A stretch of 64,000 nucleotides of DNA from a virus, in IMG/VR virus record IMGVR_UViG_3300036790_000396, positions 82,945 to 146,944 of that record. One strand, given 5' to 3'. The position numbers and the translations under genes were made by a program. The notes under the pieces were generated by a model. That model made no database searches, was not told where the DNA came from, and saw only the letters and a program-made list of their open reading frames with translations. How positions within the stretch are numbered: position 1 is the first letter of the stretch; the number at the start of each line of letters is the position of its first letter. Of this stretch, positions 1-34,076 are shown in pieces.

Positions 1-756
1 TACCTCACGCAGCCCGGTCCCGTCCAGGAGGCCACCGGGTCCCGGCACCGCCGCCACGCCCAGGGCGGCAGTGACGTCTCCCTCGCCGAGACGCCCCCCG
101 ACACCGATACCGGATTCGGCTCCGTCGACCTCGACCCCGCCGACCAGTCCAGCACCCAGTCCGGCCGCAGCGCCACGTCCGCGCGCCGCTACGCGTCCCG
201 CCGCTACGCGGACTCCACCGCCGGCTCGCCGGCGGGCGGCATGAGCACCGTCCCCGCAGGCGTGGGCGGCATGCCCTCCAGCCCGGACGGGTCGTCGTCC
301 TCCCCCGCGGCGCAGCCGCTGCCGCCCCTGGACCAGACCGTCACCAGCCAGGGACCCGACACCAGCTTCGACCTCACCCCGACGCCCAGTGCCGGCGCGA
401 CGTCCGGCACCGACTCGGGCACGTCGGCGATCACCGGCACCGGGTCGCGCCGCGACCCTGTCGCCGCGCAGATCCGCGCGGTGGCCAGCTCCGTGGCGGT
501 GTCCAACCCGCAGCTCCCCGCCAGCGAGTGCCGCCGCGTGGCGCGCCGCGTGGTCGGCGGCTACCTGCGCCGCGCCGACCTGGACAGCTCCGTCATGTCG
601 GATGATCCCGGTGACGGGGACGGCCCCGCAGGCGGCGCCGCCCCCCAGGGCGGCGGTGGCAACGCCGTGGAGCACGGCGCGGAGTTCCAGGTCGGCAAGT
701 CGGTGGCCCGCGGCCTGATGGGCGGCGCCGAGGATGCCGCCGCGGCGGCCTTCTAG
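1..756 (+). CDS. C-terminal part of a low-complexity head-associated protein (5' end outside window)
   Basis: Frame +1 is open from base 1 to TAG at 754-756. Contains RRHAQ/RRYASRRYAD/RRAD linkers like the downstream head proteins. Confidence 0.6.
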   Translation, partial: YLTQPGPVQEATGSRHRRHAQGGSDVSLAETPPDTDTGFGSVDLDPADQSSTQSGRSATSARRYASRRYADSTAGSPAGGMSTVPAGVGGMPSSPDGSSSSPAAQPLPPLDQTVTSQGPDTSFDLTPTPSAGATSGTDSGTSAITGTGSRRDPVAAQIRAVASSVAVSNPQLPASECRRVARRVVGGYLRRADLDSSVMSDDPGDGDGPAGGAAPQGGGGNAVEHGAEFQVGKSVARGLMGGAEDAAAAAF

Positions 757-1753: not shown

Positions 1754-1762
1754 GACTGGCCC

Positions 1763-7323: not shown

Positions 7324-10300
7324 ATGCCACAGCAACGTTTTGTCCGTATAGCGCATGATCCCGGAGACCCGCAGCTTTGTTCCCATTGCTTCGGGCCTGA
7401 GACGAGATACCTCACGCCGGATGGCGTCAAGACCTTGGGCGAGACGGTCGGGACTGCCCAGCGGGTAATGACCGCGGATTCCCTCCAGTCTCACGACGGG
7501 CGCTGGGCCGATGCTGAGATCCGCTCGTTCGGCGTACAGCAGCTGCACCGGATCACCCTGAAGCGCAACAAGGTAACCAAGGTGATCCGGGCGACTGCCG
7601 GGCACCGCTGGCTGGTGCGCCGCCCGGATCGCATTGTCACGACGGATCGTCTTCTCCCGGGCCACCGGCTGGCCACTGCCCGGCTCCCGCGCCAGGAGCT
7701 GGCGATGGACCGTGAGGGCATCTGCCATGGTTTCTTTTTCGGCGACGGAAGCCTGCGCCGCACGGAGAACGCTGATTACGGCAAAGTGATCCTGTGGGGG
7801 CAGAAGCGCGAGCTTGCTTCTTATTTTGAGGAAATAGCAGGTCGTCCCGGCGTCGAGAAGCACACTCCGAATGGCGTTCCCGGTCTTGCGTTCCAGGCCG
7901 GGATGAAGGGCTATGCCAAGTCGCTGCCGCTGCTGACGATGCCGCCCGAGTACCTTTACGGCTGGCTGGCCGGCTACTTTGCCGCAGACGGGTGGAGCGG
8001 GGGCACCAACGCCTCTCTCTCGTCTGCGGTGCGCGCTCACCTGGAGCACGTACGCGATATCTGCACGCTGCTCGGCATAGGTACTTACGGTATTACCTCG
8101 AAGACGCGCACTGGATTCGGGAAGGAATCTGAGATCTTCGAGGTCGGGTTCAGCCAGTCCGACCTCAATACGGATTTTTTCCTTCGCAGTGATCACCGCG
8201 AGGCCCGCAGGCCGCCGCCCCAGGAACGTTTCGGATGGACAGTCGTCTCCGTCGAGCCAGATGCTGAAGAAGAAGTCTTCTGCGCGATTGTTCCGGAGAA
8301 TGAGCGCTTCGCGCTCGAAGACAACATCCTCACCATGAACTGTCCTTTTTGCGGCTCCGGTCAGATTACGGGCAGATCTGACGGGGGCATAGACTGTGCT
8401 TTCTGCGGACAAAGCTTCATAGTTCGGGTACAGCCCGCTTTCCCAGGCATGCCGCAAGCGCCCGGAATGGGCGCTCCCACCGATGCCGGGCCCGAGGGCA
8501 TCCCGGTGGGCCTTCCCCCCGGTGCCGGGCCCGAGGGCCTTCCCCCCGGTGCCGACGGCGGCATGCCTCCCGGCGGGGACGAGGAAGGCGGCGGCTTCCC
8601 GCCCGGCGGTGACGAGGACGAAGAGGCCCCTCCCGGCGCGGATGACGAAGACGAGGACGACGGTGCTCCTCCCTTCGCGAAGAAATCATCGCGCCGCCTG
8701 GGCGCCCACGAGCATCCTGATGACGACCTGCGCCGTCACCTCGCCGAGGAGCACGGCCACGGCTGGATCGAGTACCCCGGCGTCAGCGAGATCAGCCGCA
8801 TCCACGATGCCGACCACCGCAACCGCGGCGCCGCCGCCCACCGCGGGGACATCGCCCCGCCGCTGCAGTCTCTTCCCGAGCCTGCGGCCAGGCACTGGCC
8901 GGCCCACCGCCGCGAGCGCTTCGACGATCCTCGCCTCGGCGACAGCTACGGCGACCGCTTCGGGGCTGAGGATGTTGCGGACCAGTACCGCCGCGAGACG
9001 CACGGACAGCCTTCCCCGGACTCGGACTACGGCCGGTTCGCCCCCGCGCCCCCGGAGCGCCGTCACCTGTCCGTCCGCCGCTACCGCACCATTTCCGGCG
9101 ACGTGCTCCCCGAGGACGCCTACATCCGCCATCTCGCCGTCCTGCACTCCGGCGGCAGCTCCCGCGTGCTGGCGCTGCTGCGCCGCGAGGCGGCATCCGG
9201 GGGCGACGACGGCAGGCTGCCCCCCCGCAGCGTCATGACGCAGCGCCAGCACCTGCAGGCGACCCGGGACATGCGCGACCGTCTCGCCGCGTCCGGGTTC
9301 CCGATGGACGCCCCGTCAGGCGACGAGGACATGCGGATGAACCCGTCGTGCAGGCTGGAGACGGGGCATCACATCTCATTCGGCGTGGAGCTGCGCGGCG
9401 GGAAGCACTCGATGTTCATCACCCACCCGGCGGACATGGGCCAGGGCCGCACGTTCCTGGAAGTCGGCCTGGGGCGTGACCCGTCCCGCGTGGCGGATCT
9501 CGCCCGCCGCGAGCTGGGCTGCCCTCATGTTGCGGGGGAAATGACGGAACAGCTCCGCGGCCACGGCGACGAGCCCCTCAGGCAGCCGCCCTCGGCCCGG
9601 TCGGTGAGGCACGAGGCGGAGGGCACGCAGCCGCGCGAGGCGTCCCTGCGGTACCGTGCCGCGTTCGACTGGGACAATGCCACCGAGGACGAGGCCGACC
9701 GTGAGTTCCAGCGCCGTGAGGACGGGATGCAGGATGCGGTAGAACGCCACGGCGTGGACAGCATCCTGCGTCCCAACCGCGTGAACCGGATAGAGACCGG
9801 TCACGAGATCTCTTTCGAGCACCATCCCGCGGAGGGGGAGGGAGATGATTACTGGACGGTCGGCGTCAACCATCCGGCTGACTCCTGGACCGGGGATGCG
9901 GAGCGCTACCCGCGCTACTACTGGAAGGGCTTCCGCGGTCCTGACGACGACGTGGTCCGCCAGGCGGTGCAGCACCTGCGCTCTCCCCGGACGATGGACG
10001 TGATGCGCGAGCAGTCCCGCCGTGCGATGAGCCGCGAGGCATCCCTGCGGCGCCGGGCCGACCTGGATTACGACGAGGTCCCTGAGGGGCACGCGATGTC
10101 CAAGCGGGAGCAGATCAGCCGGCTGCGCGAGATGCGCGGGCGCCTGGAGGACCACGGGATCCGGATGCTGCCGTCTGATAGCGGCATGGCTCCCTACTTC
10201 GACCTGGAGACCGGGCACCGCATCCTCCTGGGCCTTTCGCAGCAGCACGGGGACTGGCACATGTACGTCAACCACGCCCGCTCCGGCCCCGCAGCCGGCA

Positions 10301-10521
10301 TGCTGGCCGTGAACCTGGGCCCTGACTCCGGCCGCGTCCCGGACCTCATGCACCGCGAGCTGGGCTGCCGTACCGTCATGAATGCGATGATGAGCCAGTC
10401 GGCGAACGCGGCGAGGACGGAGCCGGGGGAAAGGCAGCCTAGGGTGCGCCATGTCGCCGAGGGCGTCATCCCGAACGAGCTGCGGCAGCGTGAGGCATCG
10501 GCACGACGGAGGATCGCGTGA
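7324..10521 (+). CDS. intein-containing Zn-ribbon head-associated modular protein
   Basis: GGAGG RBS before ATG 7324. The spliced N-terminus reads SH|CPFCGSGQ...CAFCG, followed by a Pro/Gly/acidic linker, a His module and three ETGH repeats. Confidence 0.8.
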   Translation: MPQQRFVRIAHDPGDPQLCSHCFGPETRYLTPDGVKTLGETVGTAQRVMTADSLQSHDGRWADAEIRSFGVQQLHRITLKRNKVTKVIRATAGHRWLVRRPDRIVTTDRLLPGHRLATARLPRQELAMDREGICHGFFFGDGSLRRTENADYGKVILWGQKRELASYFEEIAGRPGVEKHTPNGVPGLAFQAGMKGYAKSLPLLTMPPEYLYGWLAGYFAADGWSGGTNASLSSAVRAHLEHVRDICTLLGIGTYGITSKTRTGFGKESEIFEVGFSQSDLNTDFFLRSDHREARRPPPQERFGWTVVSVEPDAEEEVFCAIVPENERFALEDNILTMNCPFCGSGQITGRSDGGIDCAFCGQSFIVRVQPAFPGMPQAPGMGAPTDAGPEGIPVGLPPGAGPEGLPPGADGGMPPGGDEEGGGFPPGGDEDEEAPPGADDEDEDDGAPPFAKKSSRRLGAHEHPDDDLRRHLAEEHGHGWIEYPGVSEISRIHDADHRNRGAAAHRGDIAPPLQSLPEPAARHWPAHRRERFDDPRLGDSYGDRFGAEDVADQYRRETHGQPSPDSDYGRFAPAPPERRHLSVRRYRTISGDVLPEDAYIRHLAVLHSGGSSRVLALLRREAASGGDDGRLPPRSVMTQRQHLQATRDMRDRLAASGFPMDAPSGDEDMRMNPSCRLETGHHISFGVELRGGKHSMFITHPADMGQGRTFLEVGLGRDPSRVADLARRELGCPHVAGEMTEQLRGHGDEPLRQPPSARSVRHEAEGTQPREASLRYRAAFDWDNATEDEADREFQRREDGMQDAVERHGVDSILRPNRVNRIETGHEISFEHHPAEGEGDDYWTVGVNHPADSWTGDAERYPRYYWKGFRGPDDDVVRQAVQHLRSPRTMDVMREQSRRAMSREASLRRRADLDYDEVPEGHAMSKREQISRLREMRGRLEDHGIRMLPSDSGMAPYFDLETGHRILLGLSQQHGDWHMYVNHARSGPAAGMLAVNLGPDSGRVPDLMHRELGCRTVMNAMMSQSANAARTEPGERQPRVRHVAEGVIPNELRQREASARRRIA
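7387..8340 (+). mobile_element. intein with LAGLIDADG homing endonuclease (318 aa)
   Basis: Block A CFGPETRYLT; block B ATAGHRW; LAGLIDADG-like HGFFFGDGS and GWLAGYFAADG; end EEVFCAIV...NILTMN followed by Cys+1. Confidence 0.93.
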
Positions 10522-13500
10522 AGGTCAGGTTCTCGCCGACGGCGGCGCTCCAGCGCGACCAGGCGGTCGCCCAGGGCATGAGCCGGATGCTCGCCCGCGG
10601 CGCGGAAGGCGCCCGCGATGACATGACCCCCGAGGTCGCCGAGGCCCGCATCAACCGGCGGGCATCGCTGCGCCGGACCGGCAGCTACGGCGGGGGAGGA
10701 GGCGGCGGAGCCTCTGGAGGCTTCTCGGACATTCAGTTCGCAACCGGGAGGCCCAGGGATCCTCTCTTCTACTGGAGGCAGAACAACCTCCCGTACGACT
10801 TCAGCCAGAACGAGGAGCTGGCGAAAGTCCGTGCCTTCTGCCGGCTGCTGTACCAGACCGACCCGATTGTCGGGTCCTGCATCGACATCTTCACGAAGTT
10901 CCCCACGATCGGGATGAACCTGGAGTGCCTCGGGCGTGACACGGGAGTCCTGACGCGCCAGGGCATGCGTCCTATCGGCGAGCTAGCCGGATCTGCCCAG
11001 GAGATCCTGACCGTCGGCGGCAAGTGGGCTACGGCGAAGTTCGAGAATTACGGCAGCAGGCGCCTTTACAAGATCACCCTGCGCCGTAACCGTCGTGAGA
11101 AGACGATTTACGCCACAGAAAATCACCGCTGGTTCCGCTGGAATGCGGACAAGGAAGCAAGGCGCTACGAGGGATCTTTCAATCCTGCTTCTAAGGTTTC
11201 GTGGGAGGATGTTCGAGAAATAAGGCTTAAATACGCTGAAGGCGATATTACTCAGAAGGACCTGGCTTCAGAGTACGGGATAACTCAGCCGGCGATCGGC
11301 CAGATAATCAGGCATGGCACCTGGAAGAATCCTCCCGCTGAGAAAAAGGAGCAGGCAACTAGAGCCTTTCCGGTGAAGGAAGAGGCAGTCACCGCTGACC
11401 TCATGCCGGGAGACCGGCTTGTCAGCGGGTGGTCGAAGAACCTCATCCATTCGACGTTTCCTTCTCCTTTTGGGATCGCGCATGGCATGACGTACGGAGA
11501 CGGTTCTCTGGAGACATCCGGAGGCGGCTCCTACATCACGCTGTACGGGGTGAAGGATCTCCAGATGCTGCCGTATTTCAACGGCTGCCATGTGACGGAT
11601 CCTCCCTCTGAAGCTCGCCGGAACGGAAGGCGCGTCAGCGGCCTTCCGTCTTCGTTCAGGCAGCGCCCGACCTTGGACGAAGGGACTTCCTACCTGTACG
11701 GCTGGCTGGCTGGCTACTTTGCGGCAGACGGCACCGTGTCCAGTGGCGGAGAGTGCTACCTAGATACTGCTTTTGAAGACAATGCCAGGTTCATTCAGCA
11801 TCTCTGCACAGTCTTGGGAATCAAGACCTATGACTATTACGCGTACACGGTGCCCTTTGTTCAGACGCCTCAGGGAGCTGTCTACGAAAATCACGAATCA
11901 TACCGCGTGCCCATCGATTCTGCGTCTCTTACGAAGGATTTCTTCTGCATCAGCGAGCATCGTGCGCGATGGGAAGGGCGCAAGGAACGTCAGCGACGAG
12001 AAGAATGGACTGTCATAGGAGTAGAGCGTACAGACCAGGTCGAAGAGGTTTTCTGCGCTAAGGTTCCCGAAACGGAATCTTTTGTCATCGAGGGAAATAT
12101 CCTCACCGGAAACTGCAAGGACAGCCGGCTGGAGGATTTCCACGGCGGCCTGTTCTTCGACGAGGACCATCTCGACTACGAGGAGTTCCTCGTCGACATC
12201 GGCCGCGAGTACTGGACTTCCGGGGAGGCGTGGCCGTTCGCCACGTTCAACGAGGATCTCGGCATCTGGGATGACGAGGAGCTGCTCAACCCCGACGACG
12301 TCAAGGTCGAGCGCAGCCCGTTCCTGAAGGAGCCCCGCTACTTCATCCGGCTCCCGTGGACCATCCGGCAGATCCTGCAGACGCGCCAGCCCCAGTACGA
12401 GTACTCCCGCCTCGTGCAGGAGTACCCCGAGCTGACCGCCTACACGGCGGAGAACACGTTCATGCCCGTGTCGAACGTGCTGCTGCGCCAGCTGAAGTTC
12501 CGCGGCGACACGTTCAACGTCCGCGGCCTCCCGCTGCTGACCCGCGCCATGCGCGCGATGCTGCAGAAGGAGATGCTCAACACCGCGCTGGACTCGATCG
12601 CGGACCGGCTCTACACGCCGCTGATCCTGTGCAAGCTCGGCGCCTCCGCCACCGACCTCGGGACCAGCCAGCCGTGGATCCCCACCGAGGACGACATGGA
12701 GAACTTCGAGCTGGCCCTCGACGCCGCCCTCGCCGGGGACTTCCGTGCCCTGATCTACAACTTCGCCGTCGACATGGCGCCCGTCCTGGGCCGCGAGCAG
12801 ATGCCCGACCTCACCCCTGACTTCGAGCGGATCGAGGACACGGTGCTGCAGGTCTTCGGGCTGTCCCGCACGCTGCTCACCGGTGCCGGGGCCGGGCAGA
12901 CCTACGCCGCCGACGCGCTGAACAAGGATCTCGTCACCCAGCTGATGAGCCGGTACCAGAAGTTCCTTGCCCGCCACTTCCGGCAGCGCGCCCAGGTCGT
13001 CGCCGAGGCCCAGGAGCACTACGACTACCGCGAGCACGGCGGCAAGAGGTACGTCATCATGGAGGAAGTCCTCGAAACCGACGAGGAGACCGGCGAGAAG
13101 CGCCTCGTCGAGCAGCCCAAGCTGCTGGTGCCCGAGCTGAAGTTCAAGGTGCTGAACCTGTCGGACGAGGACGCCCGGCGCCAGTTCATCGAGGCGCTGC
13201 GCTCCGGCGGCGTCCCCGTCTCCCAGCGCACCCGCACCCGCGGCCTCGACGTCGACCTGCAGGAGGAAGAGGAAGTCTCCTCCGACGAGGCCGTCCGCCA
13301 GGCGGTCAAGGAGCAGGAAACCCGCAGGCAGACGTTCATCGCGCTGCGAGACGGCGGCCTGCCCATCCCGGAGGATCTCGCGACGGACTTCAGCCCGCAC
13401 GCCCAGGTCCAGGGGATGCCCGCGATGCCCGGCGCACCGGGGATGCCGCTCCCGCGCCTGGGCAGCGAGCCGCAGCCGCTGATGGCCCTCGCCCCCGTCC

Positions 13501-18400: not shown

Positions 18401-21400
18401 GTACCGCCCCCGAGGGCGGCGAGGTGACTGCGGCCCGTGTCCCGTGGACCGATCATGAGCGCACTGTTCTCAAGGGCTGGCAGGAAGTGCCGGCCGGGCA
18501 AGAGGGAGACTTCGTGAGCAGCAGGGACTTCACCGGGCGCCATCCCGAGCCGCCGCCGGACAACCTCGCGATGCTGCCTCCCTCCGAGGCCGCGAGGAAC
18601 GAGGAGACCTGGCCCGAGCTGCCCGGCGCCGACCTGGTTTCCTCGCCCCAGGAGCGCAGCAAGCCGTATCACCCCGAGACGACCCTGGAGAATTTCGACC
18701 ACCGCGAGTGGATCAACGACATCGACCCGAACGCTCACAAGTCCGGGGACAAGGGCTGGTTCGAGCACACCCTCAGCTCCCTCCGCGCCCAGGCCGCAGA
18801 GGAGGGCGAAGAGGAAGACGAGCCCGCGCCCCGGTCCCTGCGCGAGTTCCGCGTCAGCCCCCGCCAGGGTCATCCCGGCCAGGGCGGAACGGTGCCGAAG
18901 AACCCGCAGTCGGCCATCACCAACGCCGTGCCGCACGACTGGGCAGCGGCCTACGGGCCGCTGACTCGCGCCAAGATGAGCGCCCTGGAGCCCACTCCCC
19001 GCGCCTTCCTCCTGGCCGTCGCCGCGGCGGCCTCTCCTGCCGCCGGCCCGGATGACGACGATCCCGGTGAGGACGAGGAAGACGCCGAGGAGATGCCGGG
19101 CGGCTTCGATGACCGCGCCCTGATGCCGCAGGTGCTGCAGGGGCAGGCCCCTCCCGGCGCGTTCGCGCCGCCGCCGGTGGCGGCCGAGGGCCTCGATCCC
19201 TACAGCCAGGCCGGGATGAGCAGCCAGGACCGGCTGATGCGCCAGTACGAGCGTGATCACCCCGGCGCGGGCGAGCTGAAGCCGTTCAGCCGCGACGACG
19301 AGACGGAGCGGAAGGAAGACCGCGAGAGCGTGCAGGCGCATGCGTCGCTGCGCGCCCTCGCGTCGCTGCCGGCGTTCCGGTTCGAGGTCACCGCCTCCTG
19401 GAACGACGTGCAGGCCAAGGCGCAGCGGCTGCGCACCACCGGGTCGGTGAGGATCACCCACGCCACGAAGGGCATGATCATCGGCGAGGTCCGCGGCGAC
19501 CACGCTACCTACGAGTCCGGCATCCAGTCCTATCCGGGGCGCCCGCAGTCCGTGATGGCATGGGAGTGCGGCTGCCCCTGGGCGTCCTTCCACCAGAATC
19601 AGCCGCGGGGCAGCTCCCGCTTCGCGGCCCGGATGTGCAGTCATGCCCTGGCGATCCGGTACGAGGCGCAGTCCCGCGGCATGTTCGGCCGCACGGTCGC
19701 TCCCGACACCCGCGCCCCGTCGTGGCAGCCGCACGACGTCGTCGTCAAGTCCTGGCCGCCGTACGAGGGCGATCCGCACGCCGGCCGCTGGCGCGAGCAG
19801 CTCATGGCCCCGGCCGCCAGCCGTACCGCCGCGCGGGAGGGGGGGCTGCCGTTCGTCCCGTCCTACGGGCAGGACGATCTCCGCGCGCACCTGATGCACC
19901 ACCACGGGCTGCCCGCGTCGTTGCAGAACGCCCACATGAGCGACGCGGAGACAGAGCGGTGGCACCGGGGGAAGCACCGGAACCGGACGGACGAGACTCA
20001 CCAGCACGAGCGGCCGGAGGGCATCGGCGCCGAGCACGAGTACCCCGCGATGGCCGAGCCGTCCGAGGACTACGGCGCGTGGAACGGCGACCGGGAGGTT
20101 CACCCGCGGTACTTCCCCGGGATGCTCGCTGACGAGGACCGGTCGCGGGCGTTCGGGCCGCTGCCGCCCTCCTACAGCTCGCTGCAGAGGACGGCTGCCG
20201 AGGACGAGGACTCCCAGCAGGACGTCCCGTTCGGCGAGGGCGTCACGCCCGGCCACCCGTTCCGCCGCGGTGACATCTCCAACGGCATGTACTCCCCGCA
20301 CACCCAGCTCGGCAGTCCCTGGTACCTTCCCGCCGGCACGCAGGAGCGGTACGAGGAGGGAAGCAGCGACGAGCACGCCGGGCAGCTCAGCGCGCTCCGC
20401 GAGCAGCGCGAGGAAATGCGGGAGGACGCCGAGGAAGAGGAGCGCGAGCGCCGCGAGCACCAGGAGAACGGCGGCGGCTTCCGGCCGCGCCCGTCACTGC
20501 GCATGTCCCGCCGCGTGACCGCCGACCAGGCCAATGCCCCCTGGGGTGCCCAGAACGTCGTGCAGCACCTCCCGCAGCAGCCCTACGGTGCCACGTCGCC
20601 GGCCGAGAAGGACCAGGATCCCGGCTCCTACGGCCCGCTGTCCGGCCCCGACCCGGAGAACTGGGGCGAGATCCAGGACGGGTCGGCCGTCCAGATGCCC
20701 CTGAGCAGCGAGGCCGTCCTGCATTACATCGCCGCCGGCGCCGCGGTGATGGACGCTCCCGTGCGCACGCGCCAGGTCAGCAGCCCGAAGCTCAGTGATG
20801 ACGGCGGGGGTCCTCCCCCGCTGGAGATGGGCAGCGGCGGCGGAGGAGACGGCGAGGGCCGGTACCGGTACCTGATCACCCGGCACAGCCCCAACGGCTT
20901 CAGCCTCATCAACGACCTCCCGGCGGGTCATCAGGACCAGCATGTCTCCTACCACCACACGGCGGACGAGGCGCTGCACATGCTCGGCCACAAGCAGCGG
21001 GCCGGGTCGGCTTCCCCGCACGAGGTGTACTACCTGCCGAAGATGGACGACACTGCGGGATGGAAGCAGAGCGACCGCGGGATGTACTGGGAAGACCAGG
21101 GGCGCAAGCCGCCGCCGCGCTACGACTGGGGAAAGAAATACCAGGAGCACCTGAACCGCTGGTTCAATCCCCGCTCTCCTTCGTACAGCCCGCACCCCGA
21201 TTACGTGCCGGCCTCGGCTGACATGAGCGACGCGGAGCTGCAGGACCACTGGAAGCAGCAGCACTCCCAGACGCCCATGCCGAAGCTGCGCAGCCGCGAG
21301 CAGCATGATCACCGCCATGACCGGCTGACCGACGACGTGCTGCCCGAGTCATTCGACTCGTTCAAGAACCAGTCGAATGACTTCAGGGACCAGAAGAAAG

Positions 21401-23172
21401 GCGTCGAGCTGTTCGGCTGCCCGGCGAACCACCTGGAGGCCAGGGACTCCGCCGGGTGCGAGTACGGCGGCGGCGGCCATGTGCACGGCCCGTCGATGAG
21501 TGACCTGTTCGGCGACGACAGCGCCCGCGACCAGTACATGGACGAGGGAGAGGGGCCCGGGCACCTGTCGAGCCTGCATACCGCCGACGCGACCGCGATC
21601 ATGGGCGAGCCCGTTCCCGGGCTGCTCACCCCCGGTAAGCCGACGGCCGTGCAGGAATGGCAGGAATCATTCCCGTACGCCGACCGGGCGGCTACGGCCG
21701 GCCCGATGACCTCGATCACGCCGCACGACGGCAACGGGCTGCGGTTCGAGGAGTCAGCCGAGTACGCGCACCGGGATCCGTCGCGCCTGACCGAGGAGGA
21801 CAAGGACCGCCTGAGCGGGATCACCGATGCCCGGGCGGACCGCCTGGACCCGCAGTCCGACGAGCACGAGTACATCTGGGGCTTCCGCCAGGACCGGCCG
21901 CACGAGCACATGCGCTACGGCCAGCAGGCGGCGGAGGAGCACCGCGCTGCGTACGATGCCGGCGCCTCGGCCCGCGGGCACGACGTGCAGTGGGAGCGCG
22001 GGCACGGCTGGGGCGATCCTGCATCCGCGCAGTCCGTGCAGGGCACCTGCCGCAACTGCGGCGGGACGATGACCGTCGGCCCTTCCAGCACCTCTTCGAC
22101 GTCACACGTCAGCCGGGATCTCCGCTCCGGCCAGTGCCCTGGTCCGGGTACCGCCTGGCAGGCGCAGATGCAGGACGAGCTGGCCAGCGAGCGGTTCAGG
22201 GGCGCCGTTTCCCAGTTCGGCCATGACGTGAAGGACGGCCTCGACCGGCAGTGGCTGCGAGACCAGGGCATCGAGGCCAGCCTCCGCGCTGCGGACGCCA
22301 TGCTCGTCCTGGCCGCAGAGGAAGGGTTCCGGGGCACTGACGATCATGGCCATGAGGTGGAGTACGACGGTATCGACGGCTGGCAGCACCTGGACGGTTC
22401 CGTCTCCCACGATGACGGGACCTGCGTCACTGACGGGCATGTCCGCGAGCACCGGGCATCCCTCGGCGAGCCCGAGCAGCCCGGCGGTGCCCTCGCTGAA
22501 CTTAAGGACGAGCCGGACGCCGCCCTGGACCCCGACGGCCTCACCGGTGCCGCTGACGGCACGATCGGCGGCGGGGACGCGGGAACGGACGGCAGCGCCG
22601 CCTGGGGTGCCGCCAGCTCTGCCCTCGTCAGCTCCTGGGGCGCCCGCACGTACGACCCGAGCCAGACGCCGGCCGTAGGCTCCTCTGCCCAGCACCCGGA
22701 CATGGCCACGCAGGAGCCCGGCCTGGGATCGATGGACGACGCCCTGTCCCCGGATGACCTGTCCATCCAGACCGTCGGCTACCAGCAGTGGTCCGGTGAC
22801 CAGGTCGATTCCGGTGACCTCGCGGTGTCCGCGCACCCGCAGGAGTTCCCGCAGGAGGCCGAAGCCGACGGCCCCGGCATCGCCGACGGGCAGCTGCACC
22901 TCACGGGGAAGGCTGCGTCGCTGTACGATCCGCGGCAGGAGGGGAAACTGCGCGGCGACGGCGACATCGCCGCCGCGGCCCGGCAGTTCCTCGCCTCGGG
23001 GCAGCTCTCGAAGACCGCCGAGGTGCTGCCCGCGGCCGAGGCCCAGGAGCTGATTCGGGAGGGGACCGGGTCCCGTGCCCGCAACCTGGACCTGCTGCAG
23101 CTCGACGGCACCCACTATGCCGACGCACCGGATGATATAGATGATCACGAGGATGACGTGCTTTGGGTATAA
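15478..23172 (+). CDS. giant (~2560 aa) modular protein with three ART-like repeats, a SWIM Zn finger and His modules
   Basis: GGAGG RBS and TGATG overlap; three (L/M)HRG...W(S/T)D.P...xxEV repeats; WECGCPW...CSHALA SWIM motif; CQNC and CRNC knuckles. Confidence 0.85.
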   Translation: MAWYDEPGHAPVGDELHRGIGIYLPQDLHDYVHDESVPPDRRAHALLDRIGHTPGWAWSDDPVSAKRYAELNEPPVWHEGESGEVTPVMLHARTPGREHWLSGPHALRARELAGGYDDERPRPDPAQREVQLEAGAPLDVTGISWARPDHVGPWGIHAGEQSPAQDPGWTAHRFPRRIQLTAAVLPAKTAAASRDDLQDKSKVYLRFGHWPENERSFSGAGGYHEDGVSAYELDGDGDPKDPDPDYERGHVHEGCDPDCDMDLDDPDNDTGEEMEGRVRRAQRNRENGSDVRGETGHLVRGDVAGLGYDAEPLLTNVRRVGDWIDHRHLFVPGARPHRLARDPSSGDYEPPAEQPPLRHEGAAFPHSQLKLFHMQPDPGLNVPESGRHNPEDPGAHSRWREETDPDYEAPRCQNCGGNLHDPEGHAEDHQNWLGEQDWHTDWNEEQPGPVLHRGLVMELPPELHNRVHDESVPAADRARALVRHVIRDQGDGSPHGGLGNFWSDDPDVSKSYAEGRGGSRSETPVMLHVKTPPMEHVETDPDQLEHWGVFSYHLNGNREVPLQHQAPLEITGVSWAHPGHAVTRGPSPHDAAAWHEPGPHHFGQDPAWTHHEFGDGIRAHAASEKTWTGDPAPDWERAFREKDPRLTEMHRGIRVYPSDDVYRHVTDTSIPGADRAHVLLRHIGEQMREQPGHGIGISWTDNPDHAMRVARDGGWAEDAARSWRWPHPDDRGDHLGVVLNAKWPEKGHIETDQRVLNRHLVVPYDSPATEGEIPLRKGAPATITGLTWSQPLPGWGHQYAVHSGTFGRPVRYNGTDFEFPGQDRIAAYQGETDPRESEFNGDPQVAGVYWTAPAQQSAVQDGQLDDPQVLAPVLPVPPMLPMTPVATRIYDQKIDDHGDAPDHGTRPRASDPEGYDRDSTEGNGDPKWSDASEQTKRDQNGAAIAMYPEGVSAGGGPGISVGPFTAARLRYSACGTAPEGGEVTAARVPWTDHERTVLKGWQEVPAGQEGDFVSSRDFTGRHPEPPPDNLAMLPPSEAARNEETWPELPGADLVSSPQERSKPYHPETTLENFDHREWINDIDPNAHKSGDKGWFEHTLSSLRAQAAEEGEEEDEPAPRSLREFRVSPRQGHPGQGGTVPKNPQSAITNAVPHDWAAAYGPLTRAKMSALEPTPRAFLLAVAAAASPAAGPDDDDPGEDEEDAEEMPGGFDDRALMPQVLQGQAPPGAFAPPPVAAEGLDPYSQAGMSSQDRLMRQYERDHPGAGELKPFSRDDETERKEDRESVQAHASLRALASLPAFRFEVTASWNDVQAKAQRLRTTGSVRITHATKGMIIGEVRGDHATYESGIQSYPGRPQSVMAWECGCPWASFHQNQPRGSSRFAARMCSHALAIRYEAQSRGMFGRTVAPDTRAPSWQPHDVVVKSWPPYEGDPHAGRWREQLMAPAASRTAAREGGLPFVPSYGQDDLRAHLMHHHGLPASLQNAHMSDAETERWHRGKHRNRTDETHQHERPEGIGAEHEYPAMAEPSEDYGAWNGDREVHPRYFPGMLADEDRSRAFGPLPPSYSSLQRTAAEDEDSQQDVPFGEGVTPGHPFRRGDISNGMYSPHTQLGSPWYLPAGTQERYEEGSSDEHAGQLSALREQREEMREDAEEEERERREHQENGGGFRPRPSLRMSRRVTADQANAPWGAQNVVQHLPQQPYGATSPAEKDQDPGSYGPLSGPDPENWGEIQDGSAVQMPLSSEAVLHYIAAGAAVMDAPVRTRQVSSPKLSDDGGGPPPLEMGSGGGGDGEGRYRYLITRHSPNGFSLINDLPAGHQDQHVSYHHTADEALHMLGHKQRAGSASPHEVYYLPKMDDTAGWKQSDRGMYWEDQGRKPPPRYDWGKKYQEHLNRWFNPRSPSYSPHPDYVPASADMSDAELQDHWKQQHSQTPMPKLRSREQHDHRHDRLTDDVLPESFDSFKNQSNDFRDQKKGVELFGCPANHLEARDSAGCEYGGGGHVHGPSMSDLFGDDSARDQYMDEGEGPGHLSSLHTADATAIMGEPVPGLLTPGKPTAVQEWQESFPYADRAATAGPMTSITPHDGNGLRFEESAEYAHRDPSRLTEEDKDRLSGITDARADRLDPQSDEHEYIWGFRQDRPHEHMRYGQQAAEEHRAAYDAGASARGHDVQWERGHGWGDPASAQSVQGTCRNCGGTMTVGPSSTSSTSHVSRDLRSGQCPGPGTAWQAQMQDELASERFRGAVSQFGHDVKDGLDRQWLRDQGIEASLRAADAMLVLAAEEGFRGTDDHGHEVEYDGIDGWQHLDGSVSHDDGTCVTDGHVREHRASLGEPEQPGGALAELKDEPDAALDPDGLTGAADGTIGGGDAGTDGSAAWGAASSALVSSWGARTYDPSQTPAVGSSAQHPDMATQEPGLGSMDDALSPDDLSIQTVGYQQWSGDQVDSGDLAVSAHPQEFPQEAEADGPGIADGQLHLTGKAASLYDPRQEGKLRGDGDIAAAARQFLASGQLSKTAEVLPAAEAQELIREGTGSRARNLDLLQLDGTHYADAPDDIDDHEDDVLWV

Positions 23173-27877: not shown

Positions 27878-28795
27878 ATGTCGCTGACCAAGTACGCCAG
27901 CCTGGAGCTGCTGGAGGCGTGGCGCGTGCCCGCGAAGGCGACGCCGCGCGGGCTGTCCAAGGCGGCGCACCGCGTCGACTTCGAGTACACGCCGCGGCCC
28001 GGCTACCTCGCGTACTGTTGCCATGTGAGAGACAGCAACAAGGGAAAAAGCTGCACGGGGCCCGGGTGCCTTCGGGAAGCAAAATGCAAGGGTCTTTGCC
28101 TTGCTCATTACACTCAGCGGAGATCTGGAAAAGATCTTTCCGTGATCCGCGTTCGTGCAAAAAATGCTACGGACTCCTGCGTATTTCCCGGATGCGATCG
28201 TCCCCATTTTGCTAAAGAATACTGCAAATCCCACTATCATCAGCGGCAGCGTCACGGAGAAGTAACAGTATTTCGTCAGTTCTTGGAAATTTGTTCTTTT
28301 CCTGGATGCGATCGTGGTCACTCTGCGCATGGATACTGCGACGGGCATGCGATTCAGCTGCGGAAGGGAAAGGAGCTGTCTCCCCTCCGGGCTCGCCAGA
28401 AGGGCCGTGTATGCACAGTAGACGGCTGCAGCGATCCTTACCTTGCCCGCGGCTTCTGCGCAGTTCATTATAACCAGTGGCACTGGGCTGAATCGGAAGA
28501 GGGACGCGAGGCTCGAAAACGTGCTTTCCACAAGCGACGTGCTATTAAGGCATCTGCCGAGACAAGACTGATCTCTTCTCGCGAATGGAAGCGCCTGGTC
28601 AATCGTTACCAGGGGAAATGTGCTTATTGCAGGAAGGCCCCGTGGAATCATCGTGAGCACATAATTCCCCTAAGCCGCGGTGGAAGGGAATCGATCGGGA
28701 ACCTGCTTCCGTGCTGCGAGAGATGCAACACGTCTAAGCACAATAAGCTTCTCTCTGAGTGGAGGTACGGTGCTTCGCAAGTACGCATCGCTTGA
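27878..28795 (+). CDS. HNH homing endonuclease fused to the original 5' end of the protease gene
   Basis: Four CxxxGC...G.C..HY repeats; CAYC...EHIIPLSRGG...NLLPCCERCNTSK; the first ~44 aa duplicate the protease N-terminus. Confidence 0.9.
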   Translation: MSLTKYASLELLEAWRVPAKATPRGLSKAAHRVDFEYTPRPGYLAYCCHVRDSNKGKSCTGPGCLREAKCKGLCLAHYTQRRSGKDLSVIRVRAKNATDSCVFPGCDRPHFAKEYCKSHYHQRQRHGEVTVFRQFLEICSFPGCDRGHSAHGYCDGHAIQLRKGKELSPLRARQKGRVCTVDGCSDPYLARGFCAVHYNQWHWAESEEGREARKRAFHKRRAIKASAETRLISSREWKRLVNRYQGKCAYCRKAPWNHREHIIPLSRGGRESIGNLLPCCERCNTSKHNKLLSEWRYGASQVRIA

Positions 28796-31700
28796 GGTAC
28801 TGGAGGCGTGGCGTCAGACATCTTCTGCTGCTATGTCGAAAACTGCTCATAGAGTAGATTTTTCGTACATTCCACGTAAAGGATACTTGTACGTCCGCTC
28901 CCGGGCTATCTCCTCGCGCACCAACGACAACCACGACACGTTCGAGGCCCCGGAGATCGAGCAGGGCTACCGGACTTTCCTCGGAAAGCCCGCCTTCGTG
29001 AATCACCGTAACAGCAACCACCGCCGTGCCCGCGGCGTCATCGTGGCCGTGGCGCTGCACCGGGACCGCAACCCTGACGGCTCCCCCGACACCTGGGTCG
29101 AGGCACTGCACGAGCTGGACGCGGTGCGGTTCCCCAAGCTGGCGAAGGCGATCATCGAGGGCCGCGTCAACCGCACCTCGATGGGCGTCGACTGCGAGTA
29201 CTCCACCTGCTCCGCGTGCGGCAACCGGGCCACCAACCCTGCTGAGTACTGTGCTCATCTTCCGGCTCGCAAGGGGCTGAAGATCAGGCAGCGTAACAAT
29301 GAGACGGGGAAACTGGAAGAGAAGCTTATTCATGAAATATGTGCTGGTCTTACATTTTTCGAGAACAGTTTTCTCGTAGAGGATCCTGCCGACCCAACTG
29401 CCCATGTTTTGGACAAGCCGGACGACAGGGGCATGAAAATAAATGCCTCACGTCACGTGCTTCCAGGTGCGCCCCATGCGGATGCAGTTGACCGAGGAAA
29501 CGGAAACGCCGTACCGGCGCGCTATGTCAGCGAGCGTGAGCGCCCCGGAACCCCGGTTCATCCAGTCCTTGCCCGTCGCGACCTGAGGCAGCAGTTCACG
29601 CTTGATGATCCGGACATCCTCTTCGGTCAGCCTGCGGTTGGGATGAGTCGCCCCGCGAGCGTGCCGTTCTTTGGACACCATGTCAGCGACGTTGTCGGCC
29701 CGCGTGCCGAGGAACCAGTGCATCGGGTTCATGCACGGCGGCCAGTCACAGCGGTGGAGTACCCCCAGGCGCGCAGGGATCGGGCCGCGAATCAGCGCCC
29801 ATCCGTATCTCGATCCCAGGACACTTCTGCGGTCCGTGCCCGACAGCGTGAACCGCGGGTAGCCGGTCCTGAAGAATCCTCCCGTCCACGGATTGCAGAA
29901 TCCCGGTCCGGGCGTGAAGTCGATTTTCGACAGGAAGCGCTCGATCTCGGACTCAGTGCTCGCGAAGCGTCCGTCTACCAGCGATCGTTCCATGGACGTG
30001 ATTCTATCAATAATCCTAGGCAGGCCCGCTACCTCACCATGGATGAGGCCCGCGCTGCGGGCCGCGAGGCCATCCGGCGGCAGGCGGAGGATCCCCGCTT
30101 CGACGGCGTCGGCCTGAAGCAGGACGATGACGGCTGGTACGTGCGCACGCACCGGGCGCGCAGCCGTTCCCATCCCGTCCCGGAGGCGATCCCCGCGAAG
30201 GACATCGAGTTCATCCGCTCTACCGGGTCCCGCCGCACCGCCCGCAACGAGGAGGGCGGCGAGATGCCGGTAGTCCCCTCCAGCCGCCTCCCCCGGGTGA
30301 GCCTCCCCGAGTCCCGGAGCAGCTATGAACAGGCCGGCGACTTCCTGGATAACCTGCTGGGCAACGTGGGAAATCCGGACGCGGCTGAGTGGAGGCCGTC
30401 CTATCCCACCCGCGGCTGGGACGACGAGCGCCAGCCCAGGCTGCACGAGGAGCTGCGCAAGTCGCGCGAGCGCAACCTCCGGCGCGACATTGACGATGAC
30501 AGCGGCGAGGGCCTGGCCAGCAAGCTCGACCGCCCGGAGCAGTGGGAGCACCAGATCGAGCACGGCCTCCCGGAAAGCCTGTTCGGTGCCGGCGTGCACG
30601 TCACGCACGATTTCAGGGACGATCCCGAGGGCTTCCTCCGCGACCGGTGGAACATGCGCGCCTTCCCGTACCGCGACCCGGGCGGCACCGGCCCCGGAGG
30701 CCTGAAGCCGTCGAACAAGTGGGTCCGCAAGACCTGGCAGCGGGCAGTCGGCCCGCTGGCCTGCGACCACCCCGGCTGCCCGCCCTGGGAGCACCGGGGG
30801 CCGCGCCCTCAGGCATCGCTGCGTACCGCTGACCGGGACGATGATTACTTCTACGACGAGGACGACGATCAGCACCCGGATGAGCTGCCGAGCCGCCGGG
30901 ACTGGCGCCGGGAGGATGACGTGACCCGCAGCGAGTCCTACCCCTATTCGCCCTCTCCCGGCTCGGAGGGGCGCGACGACCTGGCGGGCTCCCGCACCCG
31001 CGGGCGCCGCGCCGCCGAGTCGTGGGACGGCTTCCCCGACGTGCGCCCCGCTCCGCCGTCCGGCCCGCGCCTGTCCAGCCGTGTCGCGGCTGCCGGGGAC
31101 AGCTGGGAGCCTGATCAGTGCCCGGAGTGCGGCGAGGGCTGGACCGAGGGCAGCTCGCGTTTCGATGACTCAGACTCGCAGTGCCTGAACTGCGGTACCC
31201 GTTACAATGCTTTTTCCGGGGCTCCGCTCAGCGATGACGAGATTGCCGTTAATGATGCTGCGATGGCCAACGAGCAGCAGAAGCGCGAGGACACGCGCTC
31301 CGGGCAGGAACTGTGGAGGAAAGTCCACCCGGGCCCCGGGCACGAGTACTCCTATAACCCGGCCGGCGACAATGCCCCGCTGGAGATGATGAATGACCTG
31401 CAGGACCAGGAGAACCAGGACAAGAGCGGACCGCTGCGGCTGAACCCGAGGCTTCCCTCCTACGAGAAGATGATGCGCCGCCGGCGCGAGCGCGCCATCC
31501 AGCAGTGGCCGTCCCATCAGGAGGTCCCCGTCGCCCCTCCGGGGACGGAGAGGCTGTCCAGCCGCATGGCGAAAGGGCGCCATGACTACCGGATGATGCA
31601 CCAGGCTCCCGACCGGCACAGCGGCGTTCCCTATCACGAGGCGAGCGGCGCGGACCCGGATGACCTGGTCACGATCTACCGGGGAGTGCCCCGGAACGTG

Positions 31701-34076
31701 AAGACGATTCACCGCGGCGACTGGGTGACCACCGATCCGGCCTACGCCCACCAGCACGGGCGCCACAACTCCGACCCATCGAAAGACTGGCCGGTGCTGC
31801 AGGCGGACGTTCCTGCGCGGCACCTGTACTGGGACGAGAACGACGAGAACGAGATCGGCTACCAGGGGCCGCACCTGGGCCAGCGTGACGTGAGCTACCA
31901 CGAGGAAGACCCGGATGATGTCCCGGGCGCTGCCGATCCTGATGCGTGGCGCGGGCATTTCGCCTCCGTGCGCCGCCGCGCGGACATCTCCGACGACGAG
32001 ATCCGCCGCGGCCTGAACCTCCCCGGCTCCCGCGAGGAGGAGCACCAGGAGGACGTGCGCGACAAGGTGAACGGCCTCTTCGGCCCGCTGCACGAGGACT
32101 ACGGCGGCCAGGAGAACTACAACCTCGCCCGGCAGAACGACACGATGACGGACCTGCAGCGCCGCTTCGAGGGCGGCCGGGGCAGGTTCGCCTTCGACGA
32201 GGAGGGGGACCCCTACTACGAGGCCCGGCACCCGTCCGGCTGGAGGGCCCGTGTCTACACCGACCAGAGCGGCGAGGCCCAGGTCCACCACGACGCGACC
32301 GGCGACGAGGCCCACGACGTGATGGACATCGGCGAGTGGGGGCCGCAGGGTCACCGCCTGTCAGAGACCTACGGCCCCGCCGATCTTGACCGTGATCTCG
32401 CCGCGTGGCACGGCGATGACGGCGAGGAGGGGTACCGGGCGCACCTGGAGCAGGAGGACCCGCGCATCCGCCGGCGGAAGCGCCGTCATCAGGGCGCGCG
32501 CCGTACCGCCGCCGACCAGCCGCCGCGGATGCCCCCGCCCGTCGACACGCTGCGCCCCGACAAGTGCCCCGTCTGCGGGGACAGCGACGTGTTCAAGGGC
32601 CAGCGCTGCTCCGTGTGCGGGTTCGTCGCGCCGCCGGACATCTTCCGCGATCCCGACACCCAGCAGGCCGCGCAGAACCACCAGATGCTCGAAGAGGGCA
32701 AGGTCCCCCTCGGCATGCCGGAGGGGCCCGCCGACGAGGAGCAGGTCGGCTCCGGCCAGGACGCTGACGACCAGCTGCTGCACCCTGACCAGATCGCCCC
32801 CGACGGCGTCCCCGGCGTGCAGCCCGGCAGCAGCCAGCCCGAGAACGGCCCCCTCGGCGGCGGCCAGGACGAGGGCCTCGTCGATCCCTCCCGCGTGAGC
32901 GCCCAGGGCGACGTCCCCGAGGAGGACGAGGAGCAGGCGGCGCAGCAGGAGACGGACGAGGGAGAGCAGCAGGCGGCGGAAGGACAGGCCGAGGAGGAAG
33001 AGGGAGCGGCCCGCGCCGACGAGGCGCAGGCAGCCGCAGCGGGGGAGCAGGAGGCCGAGGACGCTGACGCGGATGCCTCGCCCCGGAAGGATCAGGACGA
33101 CGACCGCCCCGGAGGGAAACGCAGGATGGCTAAGCAGCAGCAGCGGCGGCAGGCACCGCCCCGGTCTCGCCAGGAGCCGCGGACTGCCGCGACTGCGGTG
33201 CTGGCCGCCCAGCAGGACACCATCCGCCGGCAGGCGGCCCAGATCCGCTCTCTCGCCGCGCAGATGAGCTTCCTCGCGGACCTCGCCGGGGTCCGGCCGC
33301 AGATGGAGCAGATCCGCCGGCAGGCCGACATGATGAACCCGGCCTCCCCCGTCCCGGACCCGCCGGAGCGGCCCCCGTACGAGACCACCGAGCAGGCGCT
33401 CCAGCCGGAGACGATGGGCGACGCGAGCCGCCCGGGCACCGAGCCCGGGTCGACGTCGCACGTGCCTGCCGCGATGACCACCACTTCCGTCACGCCGGGC
33501 GTCGAGATCCAGACGGCGCCGGCCTCCTACCTCGATGACGTCACCGCTCCCGTCCAGGGCACCAACCCGTCGGAAGACGGCGGCGTGCCGGTTGAGCAGC
33601 GGCGCATCGAGACCGATGTCCGGATTGACCCTGACCCGCTGAAGGCCCAGGGTCCGGGCATCGGGGGACTGGGCAGCGACGGCACCGCCTACCCGTGGGT
33701 GATCGCCGCCCGCGGCGGCATGCCGCGCACCGCCTCGCAGGCGGCGGCCTCGCAGGAGGATGAGCACGGGGCGCGCACGTTCGCCTCGATCCGCCTTGCC
33801 CGCGCCCGCGTCACCGCGGGGCTCGCCCGCGGCGACGAGCTGGAGGGCGCGGCCCTCATCGAGAAGGACGCGTCGCTGTCCCTGAGGGACATCGAGCGGG
33901 AGATCGGCACGCTGGAGAAGGTCGCCGCCGCGGCCCCGCCGCAGCGTCCCCGCGCCTCGCAGCGCACCGCCGCCCGGTCGGCGCCGTCGATGTCCGCGCC
34001 GCCGCAGCTGGCCCGCACGGCGAGCTACTCCGACCCGGGCGACCCGATGGACGCCTCGGACGTGTTCCTCGACTGA
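28770..34076 (+). CDS. prohead (capsid maturation) protease polyprotein with C-terminal scaffold
   Basis: GGAGG then GTG 28770; FLGKPAFVNH (His), RTSMG (Ser), CSACGN..CAHL, FFENSFLVEDPADP; lies upstream of the capsid genes. Confidence 0.8.
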   Translation: MLRKYASLEVLEAWRQTSSAAMSKTAHRVDFSYIPRKGYLYVRSRAISSRTNDNHDTFEAPEIEQGYRTFLGKPAFVNHRNSNHRRARGVIVAVALHRDRNPDGSPDTWVEALHELDAVRFPKLAKAIIEGRVNRTSMGVDCEYSTCSACGNRATNPAEYCAHLPARKGLKIRQRNNETGKLEEKLIHEICAGLTFFENSFLVEDPADPTAHVLDKPDDRGMKINASRHVLPGAPHADAVDRGNGNAVPARYVSERERPGTPVHPVLARRDLRQQFTLDDPDILFGQPAVGMSRPASVPFFGHHVSDVVGPRAEEPVHRVHARRPVTAVEYPQARRDRAANQRPSVSRSQDTSAVRARQREPRVAGPEESSRPRIAESRSGREVDFRQEALDLGLSAREASVYQRSFHGRDSINNPRQARYLTMDEARAAGREAIRRQAEDPRFDGVGLKQDDDGWYVRTHRARSRSHPVPEAIPAKDIEFIRSTGSRRTARNEEGGEMPVVPSSRLPRVSLPESRSSYEQAGDFLDNLLGNVGNPDAAEWRPSYPTRGWDDERQPRLHEELRKSRERNLRRDIDDDSGEGLASKLDRPEQWEHQIEHGLPESLFGAGVHVTHDFRDDPEGFLRDRWNMRAFPYRDPGGTGPGGLKPSNKWVRKTWQRAVGPLACDHPGCPPWEHRGPRPQASLRTADRDDDYFYDEDDDQHPDELPSRRDWRREDDVTRSESYPYSPSPGSEGRDDLAGSRTRGRRAAESWDGFPDVRPAPPSGPRLSSRVAAAGDSWEPDQCPECGEGWTEGSSRFDDSDSQCLNCGTRYNAFSGAPLSDDEIAVNDAAMANEQQKREDTRSGQELWRKVHPGPGHEYSYNPAGDNAPLEMMNDLQDQENQDKSGPLRLNPRLPSYEKMMRRRRERAIQQWPSHQEVPVAPPGTERLSSRMAKGRHDYRMMHQAPDRHSGVPYHEASGADPDDLVTIYRGVPRNVKTIHRGDWVTTDPAYAHQHGRHNSDPSKDWPVLQADVPARHLYWDENDENEIGYQGPHLGQRDVSYHEEDPDDVPGAADPDAWRGHFASVRRRADISDDEIRRGLNLPGSREEEHQEDVRDKVNGLFGPLHEDYGGQENYNLARQNDTMTDLQRRFEGGRGRFAFDEEGDPYYEARHPSGWRARVYTDQSGEAQVHHDATGDEAHDVMDIGEWGPQGHRLSETYGPADLDRDLAAWHGDDGEEGYRAHLEQEDPRIRRRKRRHQGARRTAADQPPRMPPPVDTLRPDKCPVCGDSDVFKGQRCSVCGFVAPPDIFRDPDTQQAAQNHQMLEEGKVPLGMPEGPADEEQVGSGQDADDQLLHPDQIAPDGVPGVQPGSSQPENGPLGGGQDEGLVDPSRVSAQGDVPEEDEEQAAQQETDEGEQQAAEGQAEEEEGAARADEAQAAAAGEQEAEDADADASPRKDQDDDRPGGKRRMAKQQQRRQAPPRSRQEPRTAATAVLAAQQDTIRRQAAQIRSLAAQMSFLADLAGVRPQMEQIRRQADMMNPASPVPDPPERPPYETTEQALQPETMGDASRPGTEPGSTSHVPAAMTTTSVTPGVEIQTAPASYLDDVTAPVQGTNPSEDGGVPVEQRRIETDVRIDPDPLKAQGPGIGGLGSDGTAYPWVIAARGGMPRTASQAAASQEDEHGARTFASIRLARARVTAGLARGDELEGAALIEKDASLSLRDIEREIGTLEKVAAAAPPQRPRASQRTAARSAPSMSAPPQLARTASYSDPGDPMDASDVFLD
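29448..29993 (-). CDS. HNH endonuclease with C-terminal HTH, nested antisense in the protease gene
   Basis: ERFLSKI...CNPWTG...GYPRF...VLHRCDWPPCMNPMHWFLGTRADNVADM...LADIARRYGVS; own ATTATTGA-TAGAAT promoter 7 nt upstream. Confidence 0.9.
   Translation of the reverse strand: MERSLVDGRFASTESEIERFLSKIDFTPGPGFCNPWTGGFFRTGYPRFTLSGTDRRSVLGSRYGWALIRGPIPARLGVLHRCDWPPCMNPMHWFLGTRADNVADMVSKERHARGATHPNRRLTEEDVRIIKRELLPQVATGKDWMNRGSGALTLADIARRYGVSVSSVNCIRMGRTWKHVT
33126..34076 (+). CDS. probable internally initiated scaffolding protein
   Basis: In-frame ATG preceded by GGAGG and by the CCCCGGAAG motif at 33081. Confidence 0.5.
   Translation: MAKQQQRRQAPPRSRQEPRTAATAVLAAQQDTIRRQAAQIRSLAAQMSFLADLAGVRPQMEQIRRQADMMNPASPVPDPPERPPYETTEQALQPETMGDASRPGTEPGSTSHVPAAMTTTSVTPGVEIQTAPASYLDDVTAPVQGTNPSEDGGVPVEQRRIETDVRIDPDPLKAQGPGIGGLGSDGTAYPWVIAARGGMPRTASQAAASQEDEHGARTFASIRLARARVTAGLARGDELEGAALIEKDASLSLRDIEREIGTLEKVAAAAPPQRPRASQRTAARSAPSMSAPPQLARTASYSDPGDPMDASDVFLD

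Follow-up and report, generated by a model that had tools for sequence, protein, structure and literature searches.

A recurring four-residue motif in the head proteins of an uncultured soil actinophage as a candidate cleavage site of the prohead protease

The stretch of DNA analysed here (the window) is the final 64 kb of the 146,944-bp IMG/VR virus record IMGVR_UViG_3300036790_000396, a record with direct terminal repeats; the G+C content of the window is ~69%. The source is an uncultured soil actinophage of 147 kb related to the cluster C (Bxz1/Myrna) mycobacteriophages and the window contains its head module. A megablast comparison of 25 kb of the window with cultured phages gave no match, hence no near-identical cultured phage was found. 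The subject of this paper is a short motif which recurs in the large head proteins encoded there, including a protein in which a prohead protease is joined to a scaffold-like region, and which may mark the sites at which these proteins are cut.

Real genes were told from shadow open reading frames (ORFs) by a frame plot of G+C at the third codon position (GC3) and the features are collected in Table 1. The genes follow the order of Myrna gp87-gp99 and Rhodococcus phage E3 gp70-gp79. Portals of cluster C mycobacteriophages, for example Myrna, share 38% identity with the portal here, and the major capsid protein (MCP) has 60% identity to Myrna gp99. The protease fusion as a whole occupies one ORF (28770-34076), with the MCP gene 5 kb downstream of the protease gene. 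A long ORF from 14189 runs over the second of two tRNA genes, so the start of the gene following the tRNAs was placed at 14288. The product of this gene and that of the next, a protein of 2565 amino acids (aa), together make up a single protein in relatives. The 418-aa protein at the left end of the window and an upstream head-region protein have a short paralogous block in common.

Table 1. Genes, inserted elements and candidate sites in the window. Positions are those of the window; single numbers give the position of a motif.
Feature	Position	Strand	Basis or remark
C-terminal 251 aa of 418-aa head-region protein	1-756	+	Protein starts 500 nt ahead of the window; weak motif copies RRAD (568-579) and RRYASRRYAD
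Zinc-ribbon head protein with intein and three tandem lineage-specific modules	7324-10521	+	Translation, comparison with relatives
LAGLIDADG intein in zinc ribbon of the 7324 protein	7378-8340	+	Cys19 to Asn339; Pfam PF14528
REAS[L/A]R copies ending three modules of the 7324 protein	9634-9651, 10033-10062, 10489-10506	+	
Portal protein	10518-13898	+	phrog_2833, E 1e-125
Portal N-terminal candidate site RRASLRRTGS	10656-10673	+	Just before Gly-rich linker and conserved core
LAGLIDADG intein in portal	10926-12113	+	Pfam match
Portal C-terminal RTAS	13662-13673	+	
Two tRNA genes between portal and polyvalent protein genes	14075-14157, 14174-14251		
N-terminal piece of polyvalent head protein	14288-15478	+	Fused to next gene in relatives; one copy of the ADP-ribosyltransferase (ART)-like module; KQAA site 14636-14647
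2565-aa polyvalent head protein	15475-23172	+	Orthologue of Myrna gp96 and E3 gp76
Candidate sites in the 2565-aa protein	KTAA 16039, ASLR 19342, RTAA 19822, RTAA 20188, RVTAD 20512, HTAD 21577, ASLRAAD 22276	+	
Prohead protease domain	28770-29450	+	phrog_18299, E 1e-21; fold model; ends in K-I-N-A-S (29436-29450)
HNH homing-endonuclease gene, 181 aa, complete	29993-29451	-	Antisense, codon-aligned inside the protease-fusion ORF
Variable putative cargo segment of protease fusion	29994-33179	+	Small conserved module, ParB-C-like module, zinc ribbons, acidic tracts
Candidate sites in the variable segment	ASLRTAD 30813, RRAA 31005, RVAA 31080, ASVRRRAD 31962, RTAA 32502	+	
Scaffold-like C-terminal region of protease fusion	33180-34076	+	Alignment with six relatives and Myrna gp97
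Pre-scaffold RTAA	33180-33191	+	Directly after hypervariable acidic tract
Scaffold tail RTAA and RTAS	33963, 34014	+	20-35 aa from C-terminus
Major capsid protein	39160-40179	+	phrog_2522, E 6e-98
MCP candidate propeptide site L-R-R-V-A-A-R-K	39229-39240	+	Conserved in relatives

A preliminary description, made from the letters of the window, had pointed to linkers of the form xAS(L)R or RTA(A) in six of these proteins, namely the 418-aa protein, the 7324 protein, the portal, the 14288 protein, the 2565-aa protein and the protease fusion. Every motif it quoted was found in the translations and the recurrence of the motif in the head proteins is confirmed. The six proteins (7,338 aa) contain 6 copies of ASLR where shuffled sequences gave an expectation of 0.3, 8 copies of RTA[AS] (0.5 expected) and 6 matches to a combined long pattern (0.0 expected). 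The remaining 33,663 aa of the genome showed no excess, with ASLR found twice (1.4 expected) and RTA[AS] three times (2.6 expected). The comparison proposed earlier, of head proteins with others, thus shows an excess over the shuffled expectation in the six head proteins and none in the rest of the genome. The same motifs are also present in head-region proteins upstream of the window. An unbiased k-mer scan returned ASLR as the top exact 4-mer after a zinc-ribbon word, with RTAA near the top, and the tandem triplication of the 7324 protein accounts for two of the six ASLR copies. The codons at the motif sites differ synonymously, which places the signal at the level of protein and rules out a repeat acting at the level of DNA. 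A second word, T-G-S-R, occurs 5 times against 0.19 expected in the proteins at 1-756, 14288, 15475 and 28770, frequently close to where a module or protein ends (e.g. S-T-G-S-R-R-T-A), and may be a second conserved module-end signature.

The motif was examined more widely in representatives clustered at 50% identity. A HMMER search with the 227-aa protease domain as query gave 2019 cluster representatives, 501 of them with E <1e-30. The protease is N-terminal in nearly all of the best 150 matches, in which the length of the protein runs from 249 to 2557 aa, and across the family the segment between protease and scaffold varies from almost nothing to >2000 aa. The fusions of seven IMG/VR relatives are 1223-2046 aa long. 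In one of these, relative L006, the fusion is split by one in-frame stop (9802-9804) into frames of 550 aa and 1042 aa, which could be a true split, read-through or a sequencing error.

The tails of 144 protease fusions (129 thousand aa) contain 160 copies of [RK]TA[AS] compared to 13-15 expected, and 104 homologues of the 2565-aa protein contain 112 compared to 12-13, accompanied by F/V/A-T-A-A variants. The enrichment across both metagenomic families is therefore 9-12 fold. After zinc-ribbon words, the 4-mers recurring most within single fusion tails are RTAA and RTAS, followed by RRTA, KTAS and KTAA. All four positions of [RK]-T-A-[AS] are sharply specific and the flanking positions are almost free of information. 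Reversed and permuted motifs were at expectation. Known cleavage codes fared no better: the T4-type L/I-x-E and phiKZ-type A/G/S-x-E patterns gave observed to shuffled ratios of 0.74-1.21 in both families, the literal herpes consensus reached 1.7x in one of the families but 0.6x in the second, so that none of these codes was clearly enriched (ratios 0.63-1.74 overall), and R-x-A-M-P, also tested for enrichment, gave none. These observations (enrichment, position specificity and the permuted and other-code controls) indicate that the family-wide core is [RK]-T-A-[AS]. Both forms originally proposed are indeed enriched in the window, but ASLR is a local flavour; its enrichment in the families is ~4-8 fold and is largely that of the [RK]-x-A-S-L-R version of the core.

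A recurrence of this kind could be a by-product of descent, in which linkers were copied along with duplicated or shuffled modules and have no present function. The three copies in the 7324 protein do come from one tandem triplication, and paralogous modules are common to several head proteins. However, the enrichment extends over the 50%-identity representatives and over unrelated module contexts, the flanks show no conservation, the codons vary, permuted forms show no excess and the sites persist across Mycobacterium, Rhodococcus and metagenomic lineages. Descent without function is considered very unlikely.

The enzyme that would cut such a motif lies in the same region. The protease domain matches phrog_18299, 'head maturation protease', and the tblastn matches were E3 gp77, annotated 'prohead protease', as well as prohead core proteases encoded by Erwinia jumbo phages. 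Neither Pfam nor a PDB sequence search gave a match for the protease. An AlphaFold 2 model built with a 40-sequence alignment had a predicted local distance difference test score (pLDDT) of 81, and a single-sequence AlphaFold model (pLDDT 33) was discarded. VIA-align superposed the model on T4 gp21 (5jbl) with Z 10.2 and a root-mean-square deviation of 3.0 over 127 residues, and on the proteases of varicella-zoster virus (1vzv, Z 8.9), pseudorabies virus, herpes simplex virus 1 and human cytomegalovirus with Z from 8.9 to 7.1. The top 12 Foldseek matches all belong to the T4 gp21 and herpes protease families, with weak E values of 0.04-0.1. The domain, as modelled, has the T4 gp21 / herpes assemblin fold, in agreement with the earlier suggestion of a phage head protease related to assemblin. 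His79, His97, Ser137 and His163, as candidate catalytic residues, are unchanged throughout the alignment of 40 family members. The C-terminal region of the fusion is taken to be a scaffold from its position and conservation. Most listed cluster C mycobacteriophages have the protease-scaffold orthologue annotated as 'hypothetical protein', and Myrna gp97 (28589-32224) carries the note 'tape measure'; both labels seem mistaken or incomplete.

The best-conserved candidate sites surround this enzyme and its scaffold. A site of the form RG[LM]K.xA[AS] recurs family-wide 8-12 residues past a conserved R-G-[LM] at the end of the protease and is represented here by K-I-N-A-S. All seven IMG/VR relatives have the post-protease, pre-scaffold and near-C-terminal sites in common, the latter two being conserved in the alignment with six relatives and Myrna gp97, and the C-terminal site lies 20-60 residues from the end of the fusions across the family. 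The sequence RRVAARKS noted earlier at the MCP N-terminus is present, and this site reads RRVA-ARKSDDY here, RPRVA-SRKSDDY in relatives and GRFA-KSSDDY in Myrna and E3. The site at the portal N-terminus is ARTAS[LV]GRRTAY in five relatives and RRAM in Myrna. Several candidate sites are present in the cultured phages Myrna and E3, including the ASLR at residue 2268 of the 2565-aa protein (22276), which is found in Myrna gp96 and E3 gp76.

The motif might instead be cut by some other protease, either a host enzyme, as used by staphylococcal phage 80alpha, or a second phage peptidase. None of the data link the motif to one specific enzyme and, according to passages of a study of polyvalent proteins, such proteins frequently have zincin-like peptidases of their own (PMC5512222). 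However, the sites flanking protease and scaffold and those at the MCP and portal N-termini mark the classic substrates of a prohead protease, and no second peptidase was detected in the searched window proteins using Pfam and PHROGs. Another protease is regarded as quite unlikely.

The above results favour the code of a prohead protease, with which substrate set, topology and fold all agree. We propose, with a probability of roughly 0.6, that [RK]-T-A-[AS] is the site cut by the phage's own prohead protease, the cut probably falling after the Ala. The local variants [RK]-x-A-S-L-R, R-V-A-[A/S] and x-T-A-D would be forms of the same recognition site. Inside the procapsid the protease would free itself from the fusion, cut the scaffold and its C-terminal tail, trim the N-termini of MCP and portal, and cut the giant multi-module head proteins into separate pieces.

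If the motif separates modules then sites should lie at module borders, and the preliminary description had placed them there. In the window a site was found within ~12-15 residues of 6 of 23 homology-block borders, compared to 2.5 expected. Taking borders backed by at least four partners, the numbers of borders with a site within 15 residues in the two families were 66 compared to 31 expected and 73 compared to 37, and the histogram of site-to-border distances peaks at zero. Pfam domains were recognised in five relatives, and of the ~50 sites in these only one falls within a domain, several others being 6-30 residues away from a domain edge. The coincidence with homology-block borders is about twice as frequent as chance, but the strict site is present at just ~7% of these borders. 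This and several other observations weigh against cleavage. The border p-values are overstated because the sequences are related, and tandem duplication and a few conserved orthologous sites account for a share of the enrichment. Several window sites are not kept as the same motif in relatives: in the 2565-aa protein the ASLR at residue 1290 aligns with A-L-A-M-F-T-A-A and the RTAA at residue 1450 with L-A-R-R. Some copies are only 3-5 residues from the C-terminus of a protein, where a cut would separate nothing. Finally, the 40 residues around the sites contain no fewer order-promoting residues than do random positions (0.247 versus 0.224), and the idea that the sites lie in especially disordered sequence was rejected.

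The copies at extreme C-termini and the flanks of ordinary disorder would suit a motif that is never cut and acts as a docking or structural element, either contacting scaffold, portal or capsid interior so as to target modules into the procapsid or capping helices in a linker. Four residues with uninformative flanks are, however, short for a docking element, and the placement of the motif at the N-termini of MCP and portal and to either side of the protease matches the topology of cleavage. We consider an uncleaved element unlikely.

The proteins had been described as strings of repeated or unrelated modules. Such modules are seen, but two of the supposed modules are inteins and one is read-through of an antisense gene. 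The intein of the 7324 protein splits the N-terminal zinc ribbon 18 residues into the host protein and, judged by its sequence, is removed by protein splicing and not by a protease. The second intein, in the portal, is 36% identical to the first; the portals of relatives lack it and are 725-778 aa long compared to 1126 aa here. As the 7324 protein and the portal each hold an intein, not every module is cargo. Orthologues of the 7324 protein in relatives are 275-423 aa long and are without the three tandem modules.

In the protease fusion, the ORF stays open beyond the protease because it reads the antisense strand of the complete HNH gene. This antisense translation forms a spacer of ~175 aa between K-I-N-A-S and an R-E-A-S (29961-29972). 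The HNH gene ends in a TGA stop complementary to TCA, the Ser codon of K-I-N-A-S, so that the inserted gene begins exactly at the first candidate cut site. Given the codon usage, the chance of a stop-free antisense frame across the gene is ~0.48 and the open frame therefore needs no special explanation. A search of 28600-30600 for a group I or II intron around this gene gave no Rfam match, even at E 1. A further HNH gene of low G+C (27878-28795, +) lies directly upstream of, and overlaps, the real start of the protease. In its first ~45 codons it repeats the N-terminus of the protease (M-S-L-T-K-Y-A-S-L-E-L-L-E-A-W...) in diverged form, and on this evidence it looks like a homing element with a replacement copy of the 5' end of its target. 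The MCP gene is flanked by an endonuclease VII-like gene (37393-38319, -) and an HNH gene (40298-41275, +). The head module thus holds at least six homing-type elements, i.e. two inteins, two HNH genes at the protease and two genes flanking the MCP gene.

The 2565-aa protein consists of three ART-like repeats followed by conserved and variable modules, and an upstream 2288-aa protein has two further copies of the ART-like module. The assignment of this module is an atlas lead to ADP-ribosyltransferases (score 0.88), which is weak and a lead only. Pfam searches with whole proteins and with nine segments of the 2565-aa protein found nothing above threshold except the LAGLIDADG domains of the two inteins, and hence no family for any cargo module. 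In homologues of the 2565-aa protein, however, Pfam finds GNAT, NUDIX, Arr-ms, ART-PolyVal, SGNH hydrolase, LigT and Hint domains. Since these homologues carry so many enzyme domains, the family belongs with the polyvalent proteins of Iyer et al. 2017, and the enzyme modules, as recognised in the relatives, fit effector cargo.

These features could be combined into a plug-in cargo loader, in which a motif-flanked module placed between protease and scaffold, or within the polyvalent protein, would enter the procapsid, be released, be kept in the head and be delivered into the host with the DNA. The proposal concerns a family of at least 500 clusters at 50% identity and is tentative, possible rather than probable. 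The earlier statement that any linker-bracketed insert gets packaged is an extrapolation. Under the logic of such a loader selfish DNA would be tolerated, the antisense HNH read-through being excised as a junk spacer between two sites. If cleavage occurs at the motif as proposed, it would allow the mature termini of capsid, portal, scaffold and cargo proteins to be predicted in cluster C mycobacteriophages and their many soil relatives, dozens of orphan modules would gain a functional context as capsid-delivered proteins, and a simple design rule would follow for packing proteins into the capsids of mycobacteriophages.

The polyvalent proteins (PMC5512222) are giant late-gene proteins with unrelated enzyme domains (ART, GNAT, NUDIX and others), predicted to be packaged and delivered, and the relatives of the 2565-aa protein have comparable strings of domains. 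Passages of that study describe assemblin-like peptidases at polyvalent protein C-termini and stress autoprocessing by zincins, whereas the protease is N-terminal here and a motif between modules is proposed; those passages describe no such motif and the word 'linker' is absent from the main text (PMC5512222). Orthologous portal, polyvalent protein, protease-scaffold and MCP are found in the same order in Myrna (gp89, gp96, gp97, gp99) and E3 (gp72, gp76, gp77, gp79), with several of the same candidate sites, and their GenBank entries are mostly 'hypothetical protein'. The versions in the window are longer and richer in modules, and differ further by the two inteins and several homing-endonuclease genes. 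In a literature search that reached few subscription papers (the phage E3 proteome being among those outside it) the motif was described in no paper and virion N-termini of Myrna/Bxz1-type phages were not found.

In phage T4, gp21 cuts the capsid protein, internal proteins and the ADP-ribosyltransferase Alt after Glu in L/I-x-E, and capsid-targeting peptides exist. The prohead proteases gp175 and gp245 of phiKZ and SPN3US process ejection proteins, again with a cut after Glu, in A/G/S-x-E (PMC5694885, PMC10052503). Processing of head proteins in T4 and phiKZ/SPN3US is the closest functional parallel, as a prohead protease of the same fold acts on many head proteins bearing a short consensus, including enzymes that are packaged and injected. 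The Glu-type code is not enriched here, however, and the cargo in those phages is mostly made as separate propeptide proteins and not as modules strung from protease to scaffold.

The closest formal parallel is the pair of release and maturation sites in herpes UL26. UL26/UL26.5 joins an N-terminal protease of the same fold to a C-terminal scaffold, with the release site after the protease, the maturation site near the scaffold C-terminus and Ala at P1 in both (PMC4498786). Here too, one candidate site is just past the protease and one some tens of residues from the C-terminus of the putative scaffold, with Ala at the presumed P1 followed by Ser, Ala or Thr. The differences are that hundreds to >2000 residues of variable modules lie between protease and scaffold in these phages, that Arg/Lys-Thr is preferred upstream where herpesviruses have Val/Leu-Asn/Gln, and that the motif also marks other giant head proteins. 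If the proposed cleavage is correct, these enzymes would form a third specificity class among phage proteases of the assemblin fold, sharing Ala at P1 with the herpesviruses where T4 and phiKZ have Glu.

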